7,344 bases of DNA from a virus (Duplodnaviria > Heunggongvirae > Uroviricota > Caudoviricetes). A program made the translations under genes and the position numbers. Under the pieces are notes generated by a model that was not told the DNA's origin, did no database searches, and saw nothing but the letters and a program-made list of their open reading frames with translations. Positions 1-7,344 of this stretch are shown here, in pieces. Each line of letters begins with the position of its first letter. Position 1 is the stretch's first letter. The stretch lies in the IMG/VR virus record IMGVR_UViG_2526164662_000048, positions 1-7,344 of that record; one strand, given 5' to 3'.

Positions 1-2208
1 GGCCGCACGCTGTGCGTCTTCGATTTTCTTGCGCGCCCTTTCCGCTTCATCCGGAAGCACACCGAGCTTTTCAAGTATCCACGCCAGCGTATCCAGCAAC
101 ATTTTTGCAGGTGTCAGAACAAGTTGTAACGCACCGCCAAGAACGTTACCGAATATCTCGCCAGCACTGGTACATTTATCCAGCGTTTCCTTGCTGGACT
201 CCATCGGTGACAGCAGCGATTTAAACCAGTTAAACACCTGGCTGATCCCGCTTCCGATTGCGTCAAAAACAGGACCAAACCGTTCAAAGGTTTCGCGCAA
301 CGGGGTCAGCCTTTCCATAATCCCGCTGAACACCCCGGCAAAAAATGCCCTGATGGGATCCCAGTATTTCCAGATAAGAACGGCAGCTCCGGCAAGCGCA
401 GCCACAATAAGACCAACCGGACTGAACAACGCCCCGATAGCGCCTCCCAGTAAAGAAACGGAACCCGTCACCATTCCCCATAGTGCTGGCAGGACCCTGA
501 CAGCATTCATTGATCCGGTCAGGAGAGAAAAACCAAGACGCAGTTTTGCCAGCGGACCAGCAAGCACACCAATAGCCAGCGACAACGAGCCAACCGTTGC
601 AGTCATTGCCAGCAACGCACCGCCTGCTATCAGTAGCTGGCGCGTCAGTGCCGGATGGGCCTGCGCCAGCGCCGTCACCCTTGATACCACCCGCGTGAGC
701 CACTGCGTGACAGAACGCAGCGGACCGTCAATCAGATCTGCAATGCGGATGCGCAACCCTTCCCATGCACTGCCGAGTGATTTCAGATCGCCGTCAAGGT
801 TGTTGGCCATAACCTTTGCTGTGCGTTCAGCCTCACCGCGCGCGCCTTCAAGTTCTTTTCTCAGTTTGGGTAAGGAACCGTCACCCGCTGCATCAACGAG
901 CGCCATAAACGATGTGAAAGCCTCTTCTCCGGCAATGTCCTTAAAGAACGATACCCGGTCAACTTCCCCGTATTTGCGGGTGGCTTTATAAAGGTCGGCC
1001 AGCACATCCTCCATCGGGCGCATTTTGCCCCCGGCATCCGAGACAGACACGCCCAGCTCTTTCAGCGCCTCTGCTGCCGCCTTTGGCGGTGATGCCAGAC
1101 GAGCCAGGCTGGCACGCATTGCCGTCCCGGCATCACTTCCCCTGATACCCATATTCGCCAGCACGCCCGCCATCGCTGCGGCCTGCTCCAGCGATATTCC
1201 CAGCTTGCCCGCCACCGGACCTGCATATTTCATGGTTTCGCCCAGTGCGCGTAAATCAGTATTGGTCCGGGTAAATGCTGCTGTCAGCGTATCGCCCACC
1301 CGGTCCATTTGATCGGCTGTCAGGTTGAACTGTGTGAGGATATTTGAGCCAATATCTGCCGTCTCGCCGAGATCCATACCGCCAGCCGTTGCCATGCTCA
1401 GCACGCCGGGAAGCGCAGCCTGAATGGCCTGCGGAGTGAAGCCAGCCATTGCAAGAAATGCCTGTCCACTGGCGGCATCGCCTGCGGTGAACTGCGTTTC
1501 AGAGCCAAGTTTTAACGCCTGCTCACGCAGCGCCTTAAACTGCGGGCTGTTCTGGTCGATTCGCGTCAGTGCCTGAACGCGGGACATCTCTTTGCCGAAC
1601 CCGATCGCAGGCTGCAAAAAACGCCCGGCAGCATAGCCGCTCGCCGCTGCCGCACCAATTGCCAGCGCACCACCTGTTTTCAGTTTTCCCGCGGTTTCCT
1701 GCGCGCGCGAATACCGCTCACGCGCCCGCGTTACACGCGCAAGCGCCTGCCGTTCGCGTTCAAGCTGGTTGTTGTACTGTTCGGTGCGTCTGATGGCCTG
1801 CTGGATGGTGTTATCGCTGCCTGTCAGGGAAATGCCGTGGCGTTTCAGCTCTCCGCCAATCTCCCGCATTTTCTGAATTTCCCGTGTGCGCGATTCATTC
1901 AGGCGTTCAAGCCGGGTGCTTAACTGCTGCATCAGCTTTTGTTGTTTTTCGCTGAGCACTGTACCCGTGCGTTGTAACTGATTAAGGGCGTTAAGCTGGC
2001 GTCGTGCTTTCACGATACCCGCATCCGCTTTACTGACAGCGTCGCGGGCGCGCTCAAATGAACGCGCCTGACGCTCGAGATTTTTGATCGCCCCCTGCGT
2101 TCGCTGGATGGAGTCACCAAACTGCCCCATCAGGCGGCGGGCGTTTTCGGCAGGCCGGGTCAGCCTGTCAACGGCGCTGAAAGCGACCCGGATATCAAGA
2201 GTCTTCAT
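1..2208 (-). CDS. T: Tail tape measure protein (P2 gpT-like), 3' end truncated by the window edge
   Basis: I scanned the minus-strand frame codon by codon: it is open for all 736 codons from the ATG at 2208..2206 to position 1, with no stop. N-terminus translates MKTLDIRVAFSAVDRLTRPAENARRLMGQFGDSIQRTQGAIKNLERQ, followed by a coiled-coil-like, Ala/Gly-rich body typical of tape measures. It sits directly downstream of E/E' as in P2 FETUD. An in-frame ATG at 2217..2215 is an alternative start. The plus-strand ORFs listed here are antisense artefacts. Confidence 0.85.
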   Translation of the reverse strand, partial: MKTLDIRVAFSAVDRLTRPAENARRLMGQFGDSIQRTQGAIKNLERQARSFERARDAVSKADAGIVKARRQLNALNQLQRTGTVLSEKQQKLMQQLSTRLERLNESRTREIQKMREIGGELKRHGISLTGSDNTIQQAIRRTEQYNNQLERERQALARVTRARERYSRAQETAGKLKTGGALAIGAAAASGYAAGRFLQPAIGFGKEMSRVQALTRIDQNSPQFKALREQALKLGSETQFTAGDAASGQAFLAMAGFTPQAIQAALPGVLSMATAGGMDLGETADIGSNILTQFNLTADQMDRVGDTLTAAFTRTNTDLRALGETMKYAGPVAGKLGISLEQAAAMAGVLANMGIRGSDAGTAMRASLARLASPPKAAAEALKELGVSVSDAGGKMRPMEDVLADLYKATRKYGEVDRVSFFKDIAGEEAFTSFMALVDAAGDGSLPKLRKELEGARGEAERTAKVMANNLDGDLKSLGSAWEGLRIRIADLIDGPLRSVTQWLTRVVSRVTALAQAHPALTRQLLIAGGALLAMTATVGSLSLAIGVLAGPLAKLRLGFSLLTGSMNAVRVLPALWGMVTGSVSLLGGAIGALFSPVGLIVAALAGAAVLIWKYWDPIRAFFAGVFSGIMERLTPLRETFERFGPVFDAIGSGISQVFNWFKSLLSPMESSKETLDKCTSAGEIFGNVLGGALQLVLTPAKMLLDTLAWILEKLGVLPDEAERARKKIEDAQRAA

Positions 2209-2297
2209 TGTCTGCATTCCCGCTGCGAAGTGCCGCCCGCTCACGCCAGCTAACCACTTCGCCGGGCGTCATCATGAAGATTTCGGCGGGCGACCAG

Positions 2298-2725
2298 TTA
2301 AAAATGGCGGCAATATCCGCCACCAAAGTCTTCTATGTGCTCAAAGCACACAAGGGTGATTACGCTGCCGTCTCCTGCACGCTCTTCGCGCCAGAGTCTG
2401 GCTCGCTCATAAAATTTACAGCCACTGCGCACAACTGAATAAAATCGCGTGACGACATTTTTTTGATCGTCACTTCATCCAGTCGCGGTGATGTCACGCG
2501 TGACAGCAGCGTAAACATGGATTCCGCTTTCAGATTCAGCACATCAGACAGCGACAGACCACGCAGAGATCCAGCCTGCTCAATAGCCCCGGTGATCTCC
2601 ACATACGTGATTTTTTCGCCGCCTCGCTCAATTGGTTGGGTCAGTTTTACGCCACGCTCACTGGTTTCTTTCACAGTGTCAGCAACTACCGTGTTTTCGG
2701 TATCGATGTTTTTCGTCTCTTTCAT
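2298..2725 (-). CDS. E+E' fusion made by a programmed -1 frameshift (predicted 142 aa: about 89 aa of E plus a 53-aa E' extension)
   Basis: On the minus strand a run of 7 A (plus 2458..2464) lies in the context ATC AAA AAA ATG. The -1 frame is closed by a TGA at 2477..2475 just upstream, then open for 53 codons (NVVTRFYSVVRSGCKFYERARLWREERAGDGSVITLVCFEHIEDFGGGYCRHF) to a TAA at 2300..2298. The predicted total of 142 aa matches what I recall for P2 gpE+E'. Confidence 0.6.
2360..2725 (-). CDS. E: Tail assembly chaperone (P2 gpE-like), zero-frame product of 121 aa
   Basis: ORF in the track; good SD (minus strand AAGGAG about 7 nt upstream of the ATG at 2725..2723). Small acidic protein located between tail tube and tape measure, the conserved position of the tail chaperone. 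Confidence 0.85.
   Translation of the reverse strand: MKETKNIDTENTVVADTVKETSERGVKLTQPIERGGEKITYVEITGAIEQAGSLRGLSLSDVLNLKAESMFTLLSRVTSPRLDEVTIKKMSSRDFIQLCAVAVNFMSEPDSGAKSVQETAA
2457..2465 (-). other. Candidate slippery site (A7 run) for the E/E' -1 frameshift
   Basis: It is the only homopolymeric or slippery sequence in the 16-nt interval where the zero and -1 frames are both open. tRNA-Lys re-pairing on AAA is a classic -1 slip. Confidence 0.5.
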
Positions 2726-2779
2726 CAGGAAACTCCTTTCAGTCAGAGGCGACGCACTGCGCCGCCTGCATATTACTTA

Positions 2780-3292
2780 TCAGCCAAGCCCAAGCGCGGA
2801 ACGGATGCGATCGGGCACAATGTCCTTGCCGTCCTTCCGGTAAATGAAGTTCAGCAGGTCAATCTCCCACAGCGGGCGATCGTTAACGCTCAGCTTGTAG
2901 TAGGTGTTTTTAACAGCGTAAGTGTGTGATGTGGCTTCGCCCTGTTTGGCTTCCCCCATATCAATTTCCGTCACACGTCCACGCATCTCGACTTCATACA
3001 GGTCGCTTTCTGCATCGGTGTAGTATTCACCCGCAAAACGCAGCAGCGTGCCGTCAATCGTGCCGCCATACTTAAGGAACAGCTCACGAACTGCGCCCCC
3101 CATGACAAAGCTCGCATCAAGCGCGGAGTCGTCCAGACCGAGATCAATACTTACCGCACCCATCATGCCACCACCACGATAGCTGTCGGTTTTGCGCGTC
3201 AGCTTAGGCAGAGTGACGGACGTCACCTTACCCACTTCGTTTTCACCATCCACAAACAGCGTAAAAAAGCGAAGATGTTTTGGCACAGCCAT
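2780..3292 (-). CDS. FII: Major tail tube protein (P2 gpFII-like), 170 aa
   Basis: ORF in the track. The protein (MAVPKHLRFFTLFVDGENEVGKVTSVTLPKLTRKTDSYRGGGMMGAVSIDLGLDD...) closely matches my recollection of the P2 FII family (LPKLTRK, YRG.GM, DLGLDD, MRGR..EID.GE.KQGE). Its start overlaps the FI stop (TGATG). Confidence 0.93.
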   Translation of the reverse strand: MAVPKHLRFFTLFVDGENEVGKVTSVTLPKLTRKTDSYRGGGMMGAVSIDLGLDDSALDASFVMGGAVRELFLKYGGTIDGTLLRFAGEYYTDAESDLYEVEMRGRVTEIDMGEAKQGEATSHTYAVKNTYYKLSVNDRPLWEIDLLNFIYRKDGKDIVPDRIRSALGLG

Positions 3293-4476
3293 CAGGCACC
3301 TCCCAGCACCGCAAATGCGGGTTCAAAGTATTCATCAGTAAACGTCTGGTAAAGCTCCATATCTTCCAGCGGCGGAACAGGCGTATATTTGTAGCGAATA
3401 CGCACACGCCCCTGACGTAAATCCGTGGTGCTGTTATCCACCACGTCATACCAGCACTCCGCGCCAATCAGTTTCCCGGCAGTAACCAGTGAATCCAGCT
3501 TTGCCCTGATGGCACTGATTACATCCTTCACGTTCGCAGGCGTCAGTGGACTGTCGATGGTTTCAAACTGCGCTTCCGCAATTGAATCAGCCAACACCTG
3601 TGCGGTTCGGGTATACACCTCAAAGATGTAGGCGTTCGTTTCCGGTGTGCGGTTGCCCCAGAAGCGGAACCCGTTGCGACGAATAATGGTCGTGATTTCT
3701 TTGTTGTTGAGGCTGTTGGCATCACTGTCTTCGGCCTGCAACGACCAGAACACATGCCTGGACATCCCCAGCACATTTTTAACCGGAACGTTGGACAGTG
3801 ATTTGTGCCACCCCTGCTCATGGTCAATGTACGCACGAAGGCCGCACGCATAGGCAGGCGCGGGGAACGTTTCGTTTTTGCCACTTTTCGGGTTGTAGGC
3901 GATGAAGTCCGGCCATAAGAGCATCACCTCACGTTCGTTGAATTTCTGGCGGTAGGTAATCGCCTCAGCCATCGTGTTACAGCCGTGACATGAGGCATAC
4001 ACAAACGCGCGCAGTTTACCCGCAATCACGCACAGGGATTTTGTCACCGCCTCCGTGTCCAGCTCCGGCGCGGCCAGAATACGCGGACGGTATCCGATGC
4101 TTTCATCCTGCTCTGCAACAAGCAGCGCATACATCCCCGTATAGCTGCCGTCATCCTCAGAACCACCGATAACCAGTTGATCCTGCGTCTTTCCGTCTTC
4201 TTCTTTGTGTTCAGCCACGCGAACGACGATCACCTTTGTGCTCACCTGGTCTGCGATGGCCTTAAGCGCACGATAAAGCGTCCCCGTTGTTCCGCATTTT
4301 CCCAGCACGTCATTGACGCGGGTCAGCAGTGTGGGCTTGTTCAGCGGGAACAGCTCCGCGTCCGCATCATCCGCCGTTGCCACGATACCGATAACACTGG
4401 AATCAACATCATTAATCGCTGTTACCAGGTCGGTACTTTCCGTAACACGGGCACCATGAAAACGAGTTTCACTCAT
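3292..4476 (-). CDS. FI: Contractile tail sheath protein (P2 gpFI-like), 394 aa
   Basis: ORF in the track. Sequence tracks P2 FI along its length as I recall it (DADAE.FPLNKP, LRAF.Y, WPDF, IDHEQGWHK.LSNV, RRNGFRFWGNRT, YTRTAQV, YKYTPVPPLE). SD AAGGGG about 8 nt upstream of the ATG at 4476..4474. Confidence 0.95.
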   Translation of the reverse strand: MSETRFHGARVTESTDLVTAINDVDSSVIGIVATADDADAELFPLNKPTLLTRVNDVLGKCGTTGTLYRALKAIADQVSTKVIVVRVAEHKEEDGKTQDQLVIGGSEDDGSYTGMYALLVAEQDESIGYRPRILAAPELDTEAVTKSLCVIAGKLRAFVYASCHGCNTMAEAITYRQKFNEREVMLLWPDFIAYNPKSGKNETFPAPAYACGLRAYIDHEQGWHKSLSNVPVKNVLGMSRHVFWSLQAEDSDANSLNNKEITTIIRRNGFRFWGNRTPETNAYIFEVYTRTAQVLADSIAEAQFETIDSPLTPANVKDVISAIRAKLDSLVTAGKLIGAECWYDVVDNSTTDLRQGRVRIRYKYTPVPPLEDMELYQTFTDEYFEPAFAVLGGA

Positions 4477-4633
4477 AGCTTCAGCCCCTTGTATCCGTTA
4501 AATGATTCGGCAACAATCATCACCCACCACGCGCGTAATCTCACTCCTGCGCCGTTCTCCCGCCACGGCGACAACAAAAAGCAGTAACCCCCTCCGCACG
4601 CACATGCGACCATGCCGCACAGGGAGGGAACAG
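4477..4633. promoter_or_regulatory. Divergent intergenic region between FI (leftward) and D (rightward); must hold promoters for both
   Basis: 157-bp non-coding gap between two divergent start codons, each with its own SD (AGGGAGGG 5 nt before the D ATG at 4634). I could not pick out convincing -35/-10 elements or a P2-type TGT-N12-ACA late-promoter dyad by eye. Confidence 0.4.
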
Positions 4634-5743
4634 ATGACCGACACCACCATGCAATTGCTCAGTCAGGGCACAGACCCCGTGAAAATGCCGGATTTTGATA
4701 TTCTCGCGGAGGGTAAAACGCTGTCAGGCGTGGCAGAGCGCCTGATGAGCCTGTCACTGACCGACAACCGGGGATTTGAGGCGGACCAGCTCACCATCAC
4801 GCTGGATGATGCGGATGGTCAGTTGCAGCTACCCCCACGGGGCGCGCGCCTGACGGTTCTCATTGGCTGGAAGGGAGAACCGCTGACAGAAAAAGGCACT
4901 TACATTGTTGATGAAATCGCTCACGAAGGACCGCCGGACAGGCTGACTGTTTCAGCCAGAAGCGCAGATTTTCGGGATGAATTTAACGTTAAACGTGAGG
5001 TGTCCTGGCATGATGTGACCCTTGAGCGTGTGGTATCCGCCATCGCTCATCGGTATGGTCTGAAACCACAAATCAGCGAAATGCTGATGGATATCGAAAT
5101 CGACCACGCCGACCAGACCGAAGAAAGCGACATGTCCTTCCTTACGCGCATGGCGGAAATGCTGGGCGCAATCACCACGGTAAAAAGCGGTAATCTGTTA
5201 TTCATCATGCCAGGTGGTGGCGTGAACGCACAGGGCCAGCCGTTGCCCTCGTTCGTCATTACACGCAGCAGCGGCGATCGCCATCAGTTCCGCATTGCTG
5301 ACCGCGAGGCGTATACGGGTGTACGCGCCTACTGGCTTGATCTTAATTACGGGAAAAAGAAAAAAGTCAGCGTGAAACGCCGCAAACCGCCAAAACCCAA
5401 AAAGGAGAAAAGCAGTAGCCGTGAAGGTGATTATATGGAAGGCGCAGAAGGCAATGTGTTTGTGTTACGCAAGACTTATCAGAACGAGCAGGCAGCAAGA
5501 CGCGCAGCGGCGGCAAAGTGGCAGCAGCTACAACGCGGAGCCGCAGCGTTCTCCATCACACTGGCACGTGGACGCGCAGAACTCTACCCCGAAATGCATG
5601 GCACGGTAACAGGATTTAAAAGCGAAATTGATAATCAGGACTGGATTATTGCAAAAGCCGAGCACACCATTGATAACAGTGGCTTTACCACGCAGCTTGA
5701 GCTTGAAGCCAAAATCCCGGAATGGATAGCAGAAACAGAGTAA
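4634..5743 (+). CDS. D: Tail protein D (P2 gpD, late control D family), 369 aa
   Basis: The track ORF 4502..5743 is trimmed to the ATG at 4634, which has a strong SD. The protein matches the gpD family as I recall it (SLTDNRGFEADQL, GWKG, RSADFR, SWHD, FLTR.AE, ITRS.GDRH.F.IADR.AYTG, lysine-rich KKKKVSVKRRKPPKPKKEK stretch, NSGFTT.LELE). Confidence 0.9.
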   Translation: MTDTTMQLLSQGTDPVKMPDFDILAEGKTLSGVAERLMSLSLTDNRGFEADQLTITLDDADGQLQLPPRGARLTVLIGWKGEPLTEKGTYIVDEIAHEGPPDRLTVSARSADFRDEFNVKREVSWHDVTLERVVSAIAHRYGLKPQISEMLMDIEIDHADQTEESDMSFLTRMAEMLGAITTVKSGNLLFIMPGGGVNAQGQPLPSFVITRSSGDRHQFRIADREAYTGVRAYWLDLNYGKKKKVSVKRRKPPKPKKEKSSSREGDYMEGAEGNVFVLRKTYQNEQAARRAAAAKWQQLQRGAAAFSITLARGRAELYPEMHGTVTGFKSEIDNQDWIIAKAEHTIDNSGFTTQLELEAKIPEWIAETE

Positions 5744-5937
5744 ACAACTTAGATGCATTAGCCCTGACATTTGCTAACGCGCTTACAGCAAGAATCATAA
5801 CCAATCTGACAGCCTACCCGGTGTCAAAATCAGAAGAGCCTTACATTAGAATATGTTAATTTGTAGCAAACAAATTTACACACAAATGATTACTGCTGAA
5901 ATAGCCCCCATAAATACCATGTCAAAGGATCCATGTT

Positions 5938-6603
5938 ATGAATATGCAAATTTTTATCGCACCAGCAGCCACAGTTGCTGCAGTCTGCCTTGCTGCATAT
6001 TTTGCTTTACGAAATGAACGTAAAAAGAAAGCACTTGAGATTAGAACAACTCAACTAGATCGAATATCAGAGCTAGTAAACCGAGCATCTACCAATTTGA
6101 TGCAATATACAGGTACTCTTGCCTCTATACTGGAAGCGCACGCCAAAGATAATTATCTACCGAACAAAAAATTTGACATTAATGTAATTAGCAAATGGAA
6201 AGATTGCCTCGATGAGAGTGAGGTCTGGGCGATTGATAGACAGCAACTAAGAACATGTCAGCACAGTCTGGAGTTTCATCGTGAAAAAGAATGGGCTGAA
6301 TGGAAAAAAATAATTCCACCATTACTTGATAAAATTGACCAATTTTTTCTCATATCTAAGCCAGGGCAACCTGTTACGTTTATAAATGGCCAAAACAAAA
6401 CAGCTGATGAACTACTTGTTTTCTCAAGATATTTGAGAAAACAAACAGCAGAAATTGAATCAGTACGTCAGCTGTTACTTTCTCAAATGAGAGAGGAATT
6501 CATCGAGTTAACTAGCTTTGAACCTGTCACAATGTTTAGCTTATTTAAATCAATAAAGAAAAATGTCATGCAATTTTTCTGTATCAGTGCTCTTAAAAAT
6601 TGA
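5938..6603 (+). CDS. Hypothetical membrane-anchored cargo (moron) protein, 221 aa, function unknown
   Basis: ORF in the track with SD AAAGGA 8 nt upstream. N-terminal hydrophobic helix (IFIAPAATVAAVCLAAYFAL) followed by RNERKKK, then a charged, probably helical soluble region. Hand counts of sample lines give roughly 25 to 45 percent GC here versus roughly 57 percent in the tail genes. Followed by a hairpin terminator. I recognise no family. Confidence 0.7.
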   Translation: MNMQIFIAPAATVAAVCLAAYFALRNERKKKALEIRTTQLDRISELVNRASTNLMQYTGTLASILEAHAKDNYLPNKKFDINVISKWKDCLDESEVWAIDRQQLRTCQHSLEFHREKEWAEWKKIIPPLLDKIDQFFLISKPGQPVTFINGQNKTADELLVFSRYLRKQTAEIESVRQLLLSQMREEFIELTSFEPVTMFSLFKSIKKNVMQFFCISALKN

Positions 6604-6618
6604 CGCTCTGTTGCAAGC

Positions 6619-6647
6619 AACCCCAGTGTTAAACTGGGGTTATTCTT
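6619..6647 (+). terminator. Putative rho-independent terminator of the cargo gene
   Basis: Perfect 9-bp stem AACCCCAGT (6619..6627) / ACTGGGGTT (6633..6641) with a 5-nt loop GTTAA, followed by the T-rich ATTCTT, 15 nt after the cargo stop codon. Confidence 0.5.
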
Positions 6648-6752
6648 GCTAAGAGACCTTTCTACGGCATCAGTAAACAAAACGAACTATCAGTTGGAGT
6701 CTGAGCAAGTTCAGCCTAAACTAGCGACAGCACTACGTTAAGGGAGGTCGCT

Positions 6753-7013
6753 ATGTTCCGTTGTCCGCTTTGTGGCGCATCTGCCCGTATCCGCACCAGT
6801 CGTCCGGAAAATGATTCAAACACCGTGCGGCAAAAGTATTACCAGTGTAACAACCTGGAATGCGGCGTATGCTTCTCAACACTGGAAGCTTTCCATAAAT
6901 TCACATCGAAACACGCCTCCGGCATCCACTCTTCAGAAGATATCCCGTGGCATGAGCTGCCAGCTTCACACAGGGGAAACAATCAGATGAGCTTGCCTTT
7001 ACCTCAGAATTAA
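6753..7013 (+). CDS. ogr: Ogr/Delta-family zinc-finger late transcription activator, 86 aa
   Basis: MFRCPLCGASARIRTSR...QKYYQCNNLECGVCFSTLEAF matches the Ogr signature (MFHCPLC...ARTSR...RYHQC.N..C...F, with Cys-X2-Cys ... Cys-X4-Cys). Strong SD AAGGGAGG 6 nt upstream. Position just downstream of D matches P2. Confidence 0.88.
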   Translation: MFRCPLCGASARIRTSRPENDSNTVRQKYYQCNNLECGVCFSTLEAFHKFTSKHASGIHSSEDIPWHELPASHRGNNQMSLPLPQN

Positions 7014-7022
7014 CAGGCAGAA

Positions 7023-7051
7023 TTGCCGGAGTAACAAAAAAGCGATAGATT
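7023..7051 (+). promoter_or_regulatory. Candidate sigma70 promoter for the hok/mok-like transcript (TTGCCG-17 bp-TAGATT)
   Basis: -35-like TTGCCG at 7023..7028 and -10-like TAGATT at 7046..7051 with a 17-bp spacer, about 25 bp upstream of the Mok-like ATG. Hexamer matches are partial (4/6 each), so this is tentative. Confidence 0.25.
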
Positions 7052-7073
7052 ACGCGCGGGTGCCTTTCGGCTG

Positions 7074-7286
7074 ATGGTCGGAGGGAATACCCGAAGGCCA
7101 GATGTGGAAAGGCCCCGGAAAACATCTCTGTTTAACCGAGGCCCTAACCGCATTACCTTGACAAGTGAAAGGTTAGCGCCTCTCCGGAAAAGGAGCAAGT
7201 GCTATGTCGCAAAAATCGCTTACGGCCATCACGTTCTGCGTGACGGCAATCCTCATCATCTGGATGTTGCACGGTTCGCTGTGTGA
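7074..7286 (+). CDS. Mok-like overlapping reading frame (70 codons) upstream of and overlapping the hok-like ORF
   Basis: 70-aa ORF in the track, in a different frame from the toxin ORF, starting 130 nt upstream of it and ending inside it. This is the mok/hok overlap architecture. The product is basic and low-complexity, as expected for a frame used for translational coupling rather than for its protein. Confidence 0.4.
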   Translation: MVGGNTRRPDVERPRKTSLFNRGPNRITLTSERLAPLRKRSKCYVAKIAYGHHVLRDGNPHHLDVARFAV

Positions 7287-7344
7287 AATACGGATGAGCT
7301 TCTGGGGAGCGGAGTTTGCGGCGTTCTTACAGTGTAAGCAGTAA
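7204..7344 (+). CDS. hok: Hok/Gef-family type I toxin, 46 aa
   Basis: Translates MSQKSLTAITFCVTAILIIWMLHGSLCEIRMSFWGAEFAAFLQCKQ: a single TM helix, then the SLCEIR motif and an E(F/V)AAF motif shared with Hok of plasmid R1 (..RKSLCEIRYRDGHREVAAF..). SD AGGAG 8 nt upstream. The stop codon is the last three bases of the window. The ORF is below the 60-aa cut-off of the supplied track. Confidence 0.6.
   Translation: MSQKSLTAITFCVTAILIIWMLHGSLCEIRMSFWGAEFAAFLQCKQ

Follow-up and report, generated by a model that had tools for sequence, protein, structure and literature searches.

A probable hok/sok-type type I toxin-antitoxin module at the end of a P88-like prophage, with a 46-residue toxin and most likely without a conserved mok frame

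Does the short open reading frame that lies directly beyond ogr belong to a working hok/sok-type type I toxin-antitoxin module, and is its translation coupled to an overlapping mok frame, as it is in plasmid R1? The window analyzed here is the whole stretch of 7,344 nucleotides at positions 1 to 7,344 of the IMG/VR virus record IMGVR_UViG_2526164662_000048, and the original prediction, made from the letters of this stretch, placed a Hok/Mok-like locus at its right end. We conclude that the locus is very probably an intact hok/sok-type module, carried as the last cargo of a P88-like prophage some 140 nt inside the ihfA junction; its toxin is already annotated and catalogued, and the 70-codon frame overlapping the toxin gene is most likely fortuitous. 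The coordinates of all features are collected in Table 1.

The product of the toxin ORF is MSQKSLTAITFCVTAILIIWMLHGSLCEIRMSFWGAEFAAFLQCKQ in the ORF listing. Direct reading of the peptide reveals a single N-terminal hydrophobic stretch at approximately residues 7–22 (TAITFCVTAILIIWML) together with the motifs SLCEIR and EFAAF, so that the ORF, its hydrophobic helix and both motifs are all found where they had originally been described. The protein matches the Pfam family HOK_GEF (PF01848) over profile positions 5–42 of 42, with 29.9 bits against a cut-off of 22 (E 4.1e-07), and PHROG 251 with an E value of 1.3e-22. The HMM search thus bears out the proposal of a Hok-family type I toxin gene directly after ogr. 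All seven family-conserved residues are present in the alignment (M1, C12, T14, L26, C27, E28 and E37); these are the residues shared by more than 80% of 1264 Hok peptides, at logo positions M1, C16, T18, L30, C31, E32 and E41. Two NCBIfam cut-offs are missed, that of the HokA equivalog NF007290 (34 vs 89 bits) and that of the Hok-family subfamily NF007279 (21.6 vs 73 bits); as judged by these models, the protein is no HokA, nor does NCBI's narrower Hok model include it. Its relatives make up 67 protein clusters from E. coli, Shigella, Salmonella and Klebsiella, at 59–100% identity and nearly all exactly 46 aa long, and comparison of the window copy with relatives gives dN/dS values of 0.13–0.44. 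Since the Pfam and PHROG matches, the constant length over 67 clusters and the dN/dS values point the same way, the ORF is, on sequence evidence, more than a chance reading frame.

The toxin had also been described as shorter and more divergent than the familiar Hok proteins, and it is both, with 46 aa against 49–52 and 20–28% identity to R1 Hok, HokB, HokC, HokD, HokE and PndA. A tblastn search of plasmids with the peptide (E 1e-3) recovered relatives of its own survey cluster only (cluster 72, below) and missed the classical R1/F hok genes, and the distances to classical Hok proteins were therefore taken from the sequences in Table S2 of a recent survey of Hok peptides (Escalera-Maurer et al., bioRxiv 10.1101/2025.08.07.668861). 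That survey lists the identical peptide as 72_1621, in a high-abundance cluster, and assigns the 933W/Sp5 paralogue, 72_1589, to the same cluster 72. Plasmids for toxicity assays exist for both, LRP137 for 72_1621 and LRP157 for 72_1589, and only 19_179, 60_1482 and 69_1540 are named as non-toxic among the 45 homologs tested (bioRxiv 10.1101/2025.08.07.668861). Because 72_1621 was cloned and tested and yet is not one of these three sequences, we infer that the exact 46-aa peptide is among those reported to be toxic, a reading made by exclusion from the text of the preprint and not from its figure. In the E. coli genomes that are 100% identical, RefSeq labels the ORF 'Hok/Gef family protein' (WP_000078916.1). 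The suggestion of a new family member does not survive these records, in which the gene is annotated and its peptide catalogued and cloned for toxicity assay. The survey did not cover mok, Sok or the mRNA structure of the cluster, and says so explicitly for mok and Sok (bioRxiv 10.1101/2025.08.07.668861).

The window covers the right-hand end of a P88-like prophage (Xuanwuvirus, P2-related) of E. coli. Several complete E. coli chromosomes contain segment 6700-7344 with 100% identity, and the segment is 93–97% identical to the sequenced phages P88, PhiR44_2, Chuche, 500465-2, P884B11 and 520873 and to the sequenced Citrobacter phage Shae_phiSM; the locus is found in the genomes of the first five, and where a taxonomy is given (P88, P884B11) it is genus Xuanwuvirus, family Peduoviridae. 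At least 80% of this ogr-hok segment is held by 1158 of 5426 complete E. coli genomes. In phage RefSeq records the hok gene is labelled 'MokW-like host killing', which is a family name and no evidence of identity with HokW or Mok. The 100% identical locus of E. coli TUM9757 (L001; window position = L001 minus 1301) has the gene order tail genes, gpD, a gene for a 221-aa hypothetical protein, ogr, hok and host ihfA-pheT-pheS. Sequence common to all 5426 E. coli genomes resumes at L001 8907, which is the ihfA terminator, and the hok terminator ends at L001 8767; from these two positions, the hok module is placed as the last cargo of the prophage, approximately 140 nt inside its junction with the host ihfA terminator.

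Copies of the module are not confined to this setting. We gathered 18 distinct copies from varied genetic contexts: P2-like prophages of E. coli and Salmonella with the order ogr, hok, ihfA; the ends of lambdoid prophages (933W after lom, and a Salmonella prophage after tail-fibre genes); a relaxase-bearing element; Klebsiella oxytoca; and Salmonella tandem arrays of two or three copies. Members of cluster 72 are found in P88-like and Stx prophages, plasmids, ICE-like elements and the Salmonella tandem arrays. An alignment-based locus search of a one-genome-per-species collection returned six loci, three of which resemble enterobacterial contamination of unrelated assemblies.

A consensus scan for sigma-70 promoters and terminators returned terminators only, with promoters on neither strand, and both promoters of the module were therefore assigned by homology and conservation. 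The candidate hok promoter matches the consensus at 8 of 12 positions, below the threshold of the scan. Its -10 hexamer is kept as TAGAAT, TAGATT or TAAATT in 17 of 18 relatives, its -35 hexamer is variable, and the -10 ends 6 nt upstream of position 7058, the start of the Rfam hok-leader match; the promoter originally proposed here is in the right place. The Rfam model in question is RF01794, named 'sok', which matches plus-strand positions 7058..7217 over its full length (model 1-157) with 48.4 bits (E 1e-08; gathering score 59). On the K-12 genome the same model matches the hok strand and not the annotated sokB/sokC strand, with 110–118 bits for hokB and hokC. Because its K-12 matches fall on the hok strand, RF01794 is a description of the hok leader, sense to hok mRNA and not Sok, of which the window locus is a divergent member. 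A separate Rfam match to mir-268 (E 0.2) was dismissed as chance.

Table 1. Features of the hok/sok-type module and its surroundings. Positions are those of the window unless given for the 100% identical TUM9757 locus (L001).
Feature	Position	Strand	Remarks
ogr	6753..7013		upstream of hok; 86-aa Ogr/Delta zinc-finger gene; Pfam 52.4 bits
Candidate hok promoter	7023..7051	+	-35 TTGCCG (7023-7028), 17-nt spacer, -10 TAGATT (7046-7051); direct reading
Predicted hok mRNA 5' end and tac (GGGUGCCUUUC)	7058..7068	+	Rfam start 7058; pairs with 3' fbi or ucb
Out-of-frame ORF, 70 codons (earlier 'mok')	7074..7286	+	open in window allele; not conserved; probably no gene
Predicted Sok antisense RNA	7106..7162	-	about 57 nt: unstructured 5' tail of about 18 nt, GC-rich hairpin, UUUC; ends inferred
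ucb / anti-SD (GAAAGGCCCC)	7107..7116	+	5' arm of Sok-target hairpin (full-length fold); tac partner (truncated fold)
Sok-target hairpin (GGCCCCGG ... CCGAGGCC)	7111..7143	+	alignment columns 73-80 with 99-106; includes GAGG 7138-7141
Predicted Sok promoter	7170..7198	-	-35 TTGCTC (rc 7193-7198), 17-nt spacer, -10 TAACCT (rc 7170-7175)
Anti-SD GCCUCUCC	7178..7185	+	masks hok SD; dcb-like partner of GAGGC in truncated fold; MFE folds
hok Shine-Dalgarno AAGGAG	7190..7195	+	8 nt before ATG; direct reading
hok CDS	7204..7344	+	46-aa Hok/Gef family toxin; cluster 72 of 2025/26 survey; Pfam PF01848, RefSeq WP_000078916.1
Intragenic element GCGGAGUUUGCGGCGU	7309..7324	+	pairs with hok start-codon region 7204-7219; columns 170-185 with 278-293
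GC-rich 3' hairpin	L001 8654-8677, beyond window		covaries in alignment
fbi AAGGCACCC	L001 8702-8710; 55-67 nt beyond window		exact complement of mRNA 5' end GGGUGCCUU
Intrinsic terminator, then T run	L001 8732-8759, beyond window		consensus scan; covaries in alignment

The window ends exactly at the hok stop codon, as had been pointed out, and the 3' fold-back of the mRNA was assessed on extended sequence, for which we took the 125 nt after the stop codon from the 100% identical L001 genome. No IS element or other interruption occurs in these 125 nt. An interruption just beyond the window had been named as an observation that would speak against the locus; what follows hok instead is the GC-rich hairpin, fbi and the terminator, all in place. 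The minimum free energy (MFE) fold of the 409-nt transcript (L001 8359-8767) is closed by a 15-bp helix between the 5' and 3' ends, at -177.8 kcal/mol and with a z score of -8.1 against shuffled sequences. Calls of prophage boundaries that end at the hok stop codon cut off fbi and the terminator, and hok loci at prophage ends can look incomplete though they are complete.

The folding evidence was extended with an RNAalifold consensus from an alignment of 17 transcripts. The consensus contains 83 pairs, 20 of which keep pairing through changes on both sides, and such double-sided compensatory pairs occur in the tac/fbi helix, the Sok-target hairpin, the 3' hairpin and the terminator. In tac/fbi (columns 21-32 with 376-388) four pairs are changed on both sides; in the Sok-target hairpin, pairing is preserved by AU in place of GC in four sequences and by UA in place of CG in one. 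The alternative tac/ucb helix (7058-7068 with 7107-7116) comprises 10 pairs with 96.3% of cells paired, as compared with 33–57% in slid controls. Two of its pairs are changed on both sides, in the same two tac columns that covary, and it forms in the predicted fold of the truncated mRNA as well. One relative (L013/L014) is without the 5' tac region. Taken together, tac/fbi, tac/ucb, the Sok-target hairpin, the 3' stem-loop with its tail and the terminator support the presence of the structural hallmarks of R1 hok mRNA in the predicted transcript.

Closer to the toxin gene, the GAGG at 7138-7141 is conserved and corresponds to the mok SD of R1, hokB and hokC, the leaders of hokB and hokC being homologous here. 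The hok SD reads AAGGAG(C/T) in 16 of 17 aligned copies and ACGAG in Sdiar. The local hairpin between this SD and its anti-SD is 93.6% paired over the 17 copies and does not covary, and the alignment therefore gives evidence neither for nor against it. A 5-bp pairing of GAGGC with GCCUC can form in all 17 copies, with one compensatory change, and in one lineage three positions, in ucb, in the GAGG arm and in GCCUC, are altered together. The intragenic element is invariant in the 17 copies, even at synonymous sites.

These results bear directly on the possibility, raised in the original prediction, that the locus is a decayed copy, that is, a non-functional hok remnant like several of the chromosomal hok loci of K-12. 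The short and divergent protein, the scores below the Rfam and NCBIfam cut-offs and the relative that has no 5' tac region speak for such a remnant. They are set against a peptide whose length is kept at 46 aa across four enterobacterial groups, the dN/dS values given above, RNA elements that are all intact and covarying when the 125 nt that follow the window are included, the absence of any downstream IS element or interruption in that extension, and a peptide reported to be toxic and not counted among the three non-toxic ones. We consider decay very improbable indeed. The module is already known, annotated, catalogued and assayed, and is functional-looking, neither new nor decayed.

For the antisense RNA, which had been expected on the minus strand within 7060..7200, an approximate position can now be offered: Sok is predicted to run from about 7162 to 7106 on that strand. 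This placement draws on the layout of the 18 copies and on homology to sokB and sokC. In folds of 18 of 18 copies the minus strand has an identical architecture, consisting of a variable stretch of approximately 18 nt, a conserved GC-rich hairpin and UUUC or UUCG, and this architecture recurs in the annotated SokB and SokC of K-12, whose hairpin is homologous. Counted from the hok ATG, the positions are likewise similar, with -42..-98 here, -48..-104 for sokB and -49..-107 for sokC. The predicted Sok promoter matches the consensus at 6 of 12 positions and is absent from the scan output; over the 18 copies each of its hexamers has two alleles (TTGCTC/TTTACT and TAACCT/TATCCT), the spacer is always 17 nt, and the position agrees with that of the sokB promoter (TTGCCG-17-TAAGAT). 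The complement of the Sok 5' tail is the least conserved segment of the module, with a mean pairwise identity of 0.61 as against 0.72–0.86 elsewhere, and because of this lowest identity the variable tail fits the role of a recognition or specificity determinant that diverges between paralogues.

We then come to the overlapping frame. The original prediction described a 70-codon ORF, out of frame with hok, as the mok that couples toxin translation; the ORF exists in the window, where the A of the hok ATG sits in the middle of one of its codons and the two frames differ accordingly, but its status as a conserved mok does not hold. Its ATG at 7074 lacks an SD and is separated by 16 nt from the 5' end of the mRNA, and its 70-aa product has no match in Pfam, NCBIfam, PHROG or PADLOC. 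The mok frames of R1, hokB and hokC begin with an ATG 7–8 nt after GAGG and extend past the hok SD; the only in-frame starts after GAGG in the window are ATT 7152, at a distance of 10 nt, and TTG 7158, at 16 nt. In phage P88, whose DNA is 96% identical, TTG 7158 is replaced by TAA, which closes the frame and leaves no start codon, and the same holds for other alleles of more than 93% identity. In 933W the 70-codon frame is broken twice.

The survey of leaders was widened to 144 copies, which gave 72 distinct analysable leaders, mostly from IMG/VR proviruses, and in each we looked for an ORF running from GAGG to the hok SD, with the near-cognate starts CTG, ATT, ATC and ATA allowed. No such ORF is present in 42 of the 72 leaders, near-cognate starts included; in 13 others the possible starts are all near-cognate, and in the last 17 a canonical start is available, in most cases with an implausible spacing. 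K-12 hokB and hokC served as positive controls for this script, and their annotated mok ATG was recovered in both cases. Most likely, then, the 70-codon ORF is fortuitous and a mok leader ORF is not conserved in the cluster-72 subfamily, as far as these sequences can tell.

The same observations have to be weighed against a canonical hok/mok/sok organization, in which translation of a real mok, with ATT 7152 or TTG 7158 as a more plausible start than ATG 7074, would open the hok ribosome-binding site and Sok would block mok initiation as in R1. Several features agree with it: the ORF exists and has the frame relation to hok that is seen in R1 and K-12; GAGG is conserved at the position of the hokB/hokC mok SD and is followed at 10 nt by ATT 7152; the window haplotype, in which the frame is open, is the commonest single one among the 144 copies and in the IMG/VR sample; and in R1 the translation of mok up to the hok SD is mandatory. 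Conservation of GAGG, however, is equally explained by the covarying Sok terminator hairpin, ATG 7074 lacks an SD and falls within the tac-proximal 5' structure, and TTG 7158 is more distant from GAGG than the mok starts of hokB and hokC. With the closed frames of P88 and the other closely similar alleles, and the 42 leaders in which no ORF can reach the hok SD, we regard the canonical organization as unlikely. A functional mok may nevertheless exist as a lineage-specific trait of the window allele.

A module without mok would need a different activation step, as R1 requires mok translation. Based on the pairings described above, we propose, with a confidence that falls just short of even, that cluster 72, the family of 46-aa Hok proteins, is a natural mok-less variant of hok/sok in which GAGGC acts as an anti-anti-SD: after 3' trimming GAGGC would pair with GCCUC and thereby directly free the strong hok SD, and Sok, instead of shutting off a leader ORF, would sequester the GAGGC arm and promote RNase III-dependent decay. 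This activation by GAGGC/GCCUC is put forward as a hypothesis, suggested by the MFE folds together with one compensatory event. A search for mok-less hok loci found no report in the searchable literature.

In the mechanism that we favor for the module, the weak promoter at 7023-7051 would give rise to a hok mRNA of roughly 410 nt that starts near 7058 and ends at the terminator about 120 nt beyond the window. The full-length mRNA would be closed by the covariation-supported tac/fbi helix between its ends, and in this form the GAGG arm would lie in a hairpin, the hok SD would be masked by CCUCUCC and the AUG would be paired with codons 36–41; by analogy with R1, the full-length form would be translationally inert. 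Slow trimming of the 3' end back to the stable 3' hairpin would remove fbi, upon which tac would pair with ucb, a helix again supported by covariation, and GAGGC would re-pair with GCCUC, a step that presumably exposes both the Sok target and the hok SD. As long as the prophage is present, the unstable Sok RNA of about 57 nt would, as its homology to SokB and SokC suggests, pair with the leader and bring about decay or a block of translation. Should the supply of Sok fail, the 46-aa Hok, the toxicity of which was reported by others, would enter the inner membrane and kill or lyse the cell. Plausible triggers of such a failure are loss of the prophage, shut-off of the host by another phage, and prophage induction.

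The toxin-antitoxin mechanism of the module is well supported, and addiction, lysis aid and abortive infection are equally compatible with the sequence, which does not discriminate between these roles. To a role other than addiction we give somewhat less than an even chance: the module may aid lysis on induction, like the prophage-borne hokW-sokW module of Sakai prophage 5, Sp5 (Takada et al. 2021, PMC8621323), or serve in abortive infection, as reported for R1 hok/sok. Deletion of hokW-sokW halves phage release, and mitomycin C treatment raises the level of HokW; prophages are four-fold enriched in hok genes, and the module lies at the prophage end, where morons are typically found. HokW, however, belongs to a different, HokD-like cluster and is 24% identical to the 46-aa protein, and the module matches no PADLOC model.

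For annotation the practical change is small, the gene being annotated, abundant and already assayed. This abundant subfamily is of interest in that it retains all RNA elements of the R1 paradigm but not the mok frame. If this is confirmed experimentally, (i) coupling of translation by mok could no longer be regarded as universal among hok/sok systems and (ii) cluster 72 would provide a natural system for studying repression of hok by Sok where there is no leader ORF.

Finally, we compared the module with known systems. Its nearest counterpart is sequence 72_1621 of cluster 72 (bioRxiv 10.1101/2025.08.07.668861), from which the 46-aa peptide does not differ at the protein level. The prophage-borne HokW of hokW-sokW (PMC8621323) is more distant, with 51 aa, a HokD-like sequence and membership of cluster 35. 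Stx phages that carry hokW also carry a cluster-72 copy after lom, with 83% DNA identity to the window copy; identification of this Stx-phage match with the published hokW was rejected, since the peptide encoded by the matching 933W segment is another one of 46 aa and the retrieved loci do not contain the hokW primer sequence. K-12 hokB/mokB/sokB and hokC/mokC/sokC share with the window locus the homologous Sok hairpin, the position of the Sok promoter, a similar distance between Sok and the hok ATG, and leaders that begin with the same GGGUGC; they differ in scoring more than twice as high with RF01794, in having a mok ATG 7–8 nt after GAGG and in their proteins, which are 20–22% identical to the window Hok. 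The R1 Hok protein, with 52 aa, is 28% identical, and mok translation is mandatory in R1, whereas neither a mok start codon nor an open mok frame is conserved here. Shared with R1 hok/mok/sok are the core motifs of Hok, including SLCEIR, the layout of the leader, in which tac, ucb, the GAGG hairpin and GCCUC precede the SD, the tac/fbi closure, the 3' stem-loop and an antisense RNA of approximately 60 nt against the leader, which in the present module is predicted.

The Rfam model RF01794, which carries the title 'sok antitoxin (CssrC)', matches the hok/mok-coding strand, whereas the annotated sokC and sokB RNAs lie on the other one. The final bases of the model are the hok AUG; RF01794 in effect describes the hok mRNA leader, and strand calls based on it will therefore mislabel Sok. 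Matches in the window and in the two K-12 loci are listed in the table with the other features discussed here.

The opposite end of the hok mRNA is affected by how viral stretches are delimited. At least 26 of the 80 listed IMG/VR stretches (loci L029-L099) stop exactly 13 nt past the conserved hok motif, i.e. at the hok stop codon, and the window has the same end point (7344). This indicates that provirus- or gene-based boundary trimming routinely cuts off the hok 3' UTR, with loss of the 3' hairpin, the tac-pairing element fbi and the terminator, and that loci trimmed in this way appear truncated for that reason.

Coordinates of features in the window and in the comparison loci
Feature	Sequence	Position	Strand	Remark
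RF01794 match	window	7058..7217		
RF01794 match	L023 (K-12 hokC locus)	502-654		
RF01794 match	L024 (K-12 hokB locus)	567-718		
Cluster-72 hok copy	L003 (phage 933W)	1500-1870		after lom
Tandem cluster-72 copies	L017	1501, 1991		
Tandem cluster-72 copies	L018	1501, 1995		
Tandem cluster-72 copies	L020	1501, 2140, 2847		
Tandem cluster-72 copies	L021	1501, 2005, 2503		
Replaced leader region	L013 and L014	about 1300-1400		upstream of hok at 1501
Ibs-family toxin gene, 19 aa	L022	1881-1940	-	
gpD-like (VgrG/Pvc8 family) tail protein ORF, 413 aa	window	4502..5743	+	
221-aa ORF, hydrophobic N-terminus	window	5938..6603	+	between gpD-like tail gene and ogr

Copies of hok from the 46-aa subfamily (cluster 72) lie without annotation in the original records of the phages 933W, VT2-Sakai and Min27. 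In 933W, fbi and the start codon of L0129, the next gene downstream, overlap (ATGGCACCC), and a terminator is absent from its usual position after fbi. Salmonella enterica carries two or three complete hok/sok modules of cluster 72 in tandem arrays, spaced 490-710 bp apart; the copies differ mainly where they are complementary to the 5' tail of Sok. In a Salmonella lambdoid prophage (L013/L014), unrelated sequence stands in place of the promoter, tac and the initial ~40 leader nucleotides in a module that is otherwise intact, fbi included; this copy may be inactivated, or else transcribed from elsewhere. In Salmonella diarizonae (L022), hok is followed after 240 nt by the gene for a type I toxin of the Ibs family, so that two unrelated type I toxin loci adjoin each other. 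Cluster-72 genes 72-98% identical also occur on contigs of assemblies labelled Planococcaceae, Vagococcus and Xanthomonas pisi (L004, L005, L008), where enterobacterial or phage contamination is the most likely explanation.

Upstream of ogr, the gpD-like ORF spans 413 aa in the window, whereas the RefSeq CDS in the 100% identical E. coli TUM9757 genome (L001 6191-7044) has only 266 aa; an additional small partial pseudogene is annotated there on the opposite strand. The mismatch may reflect a start-site or annotation inconsistency. The 221-aa ORF has no Pfam match above threshold and none in PHROG or PADLOC, and is labelled hypothetical in RefSeq (WP_001057122.1). In phage P88, the tail protein gene and hok lie too close together to leave space for this ORF, so we regard it as variable cargo.
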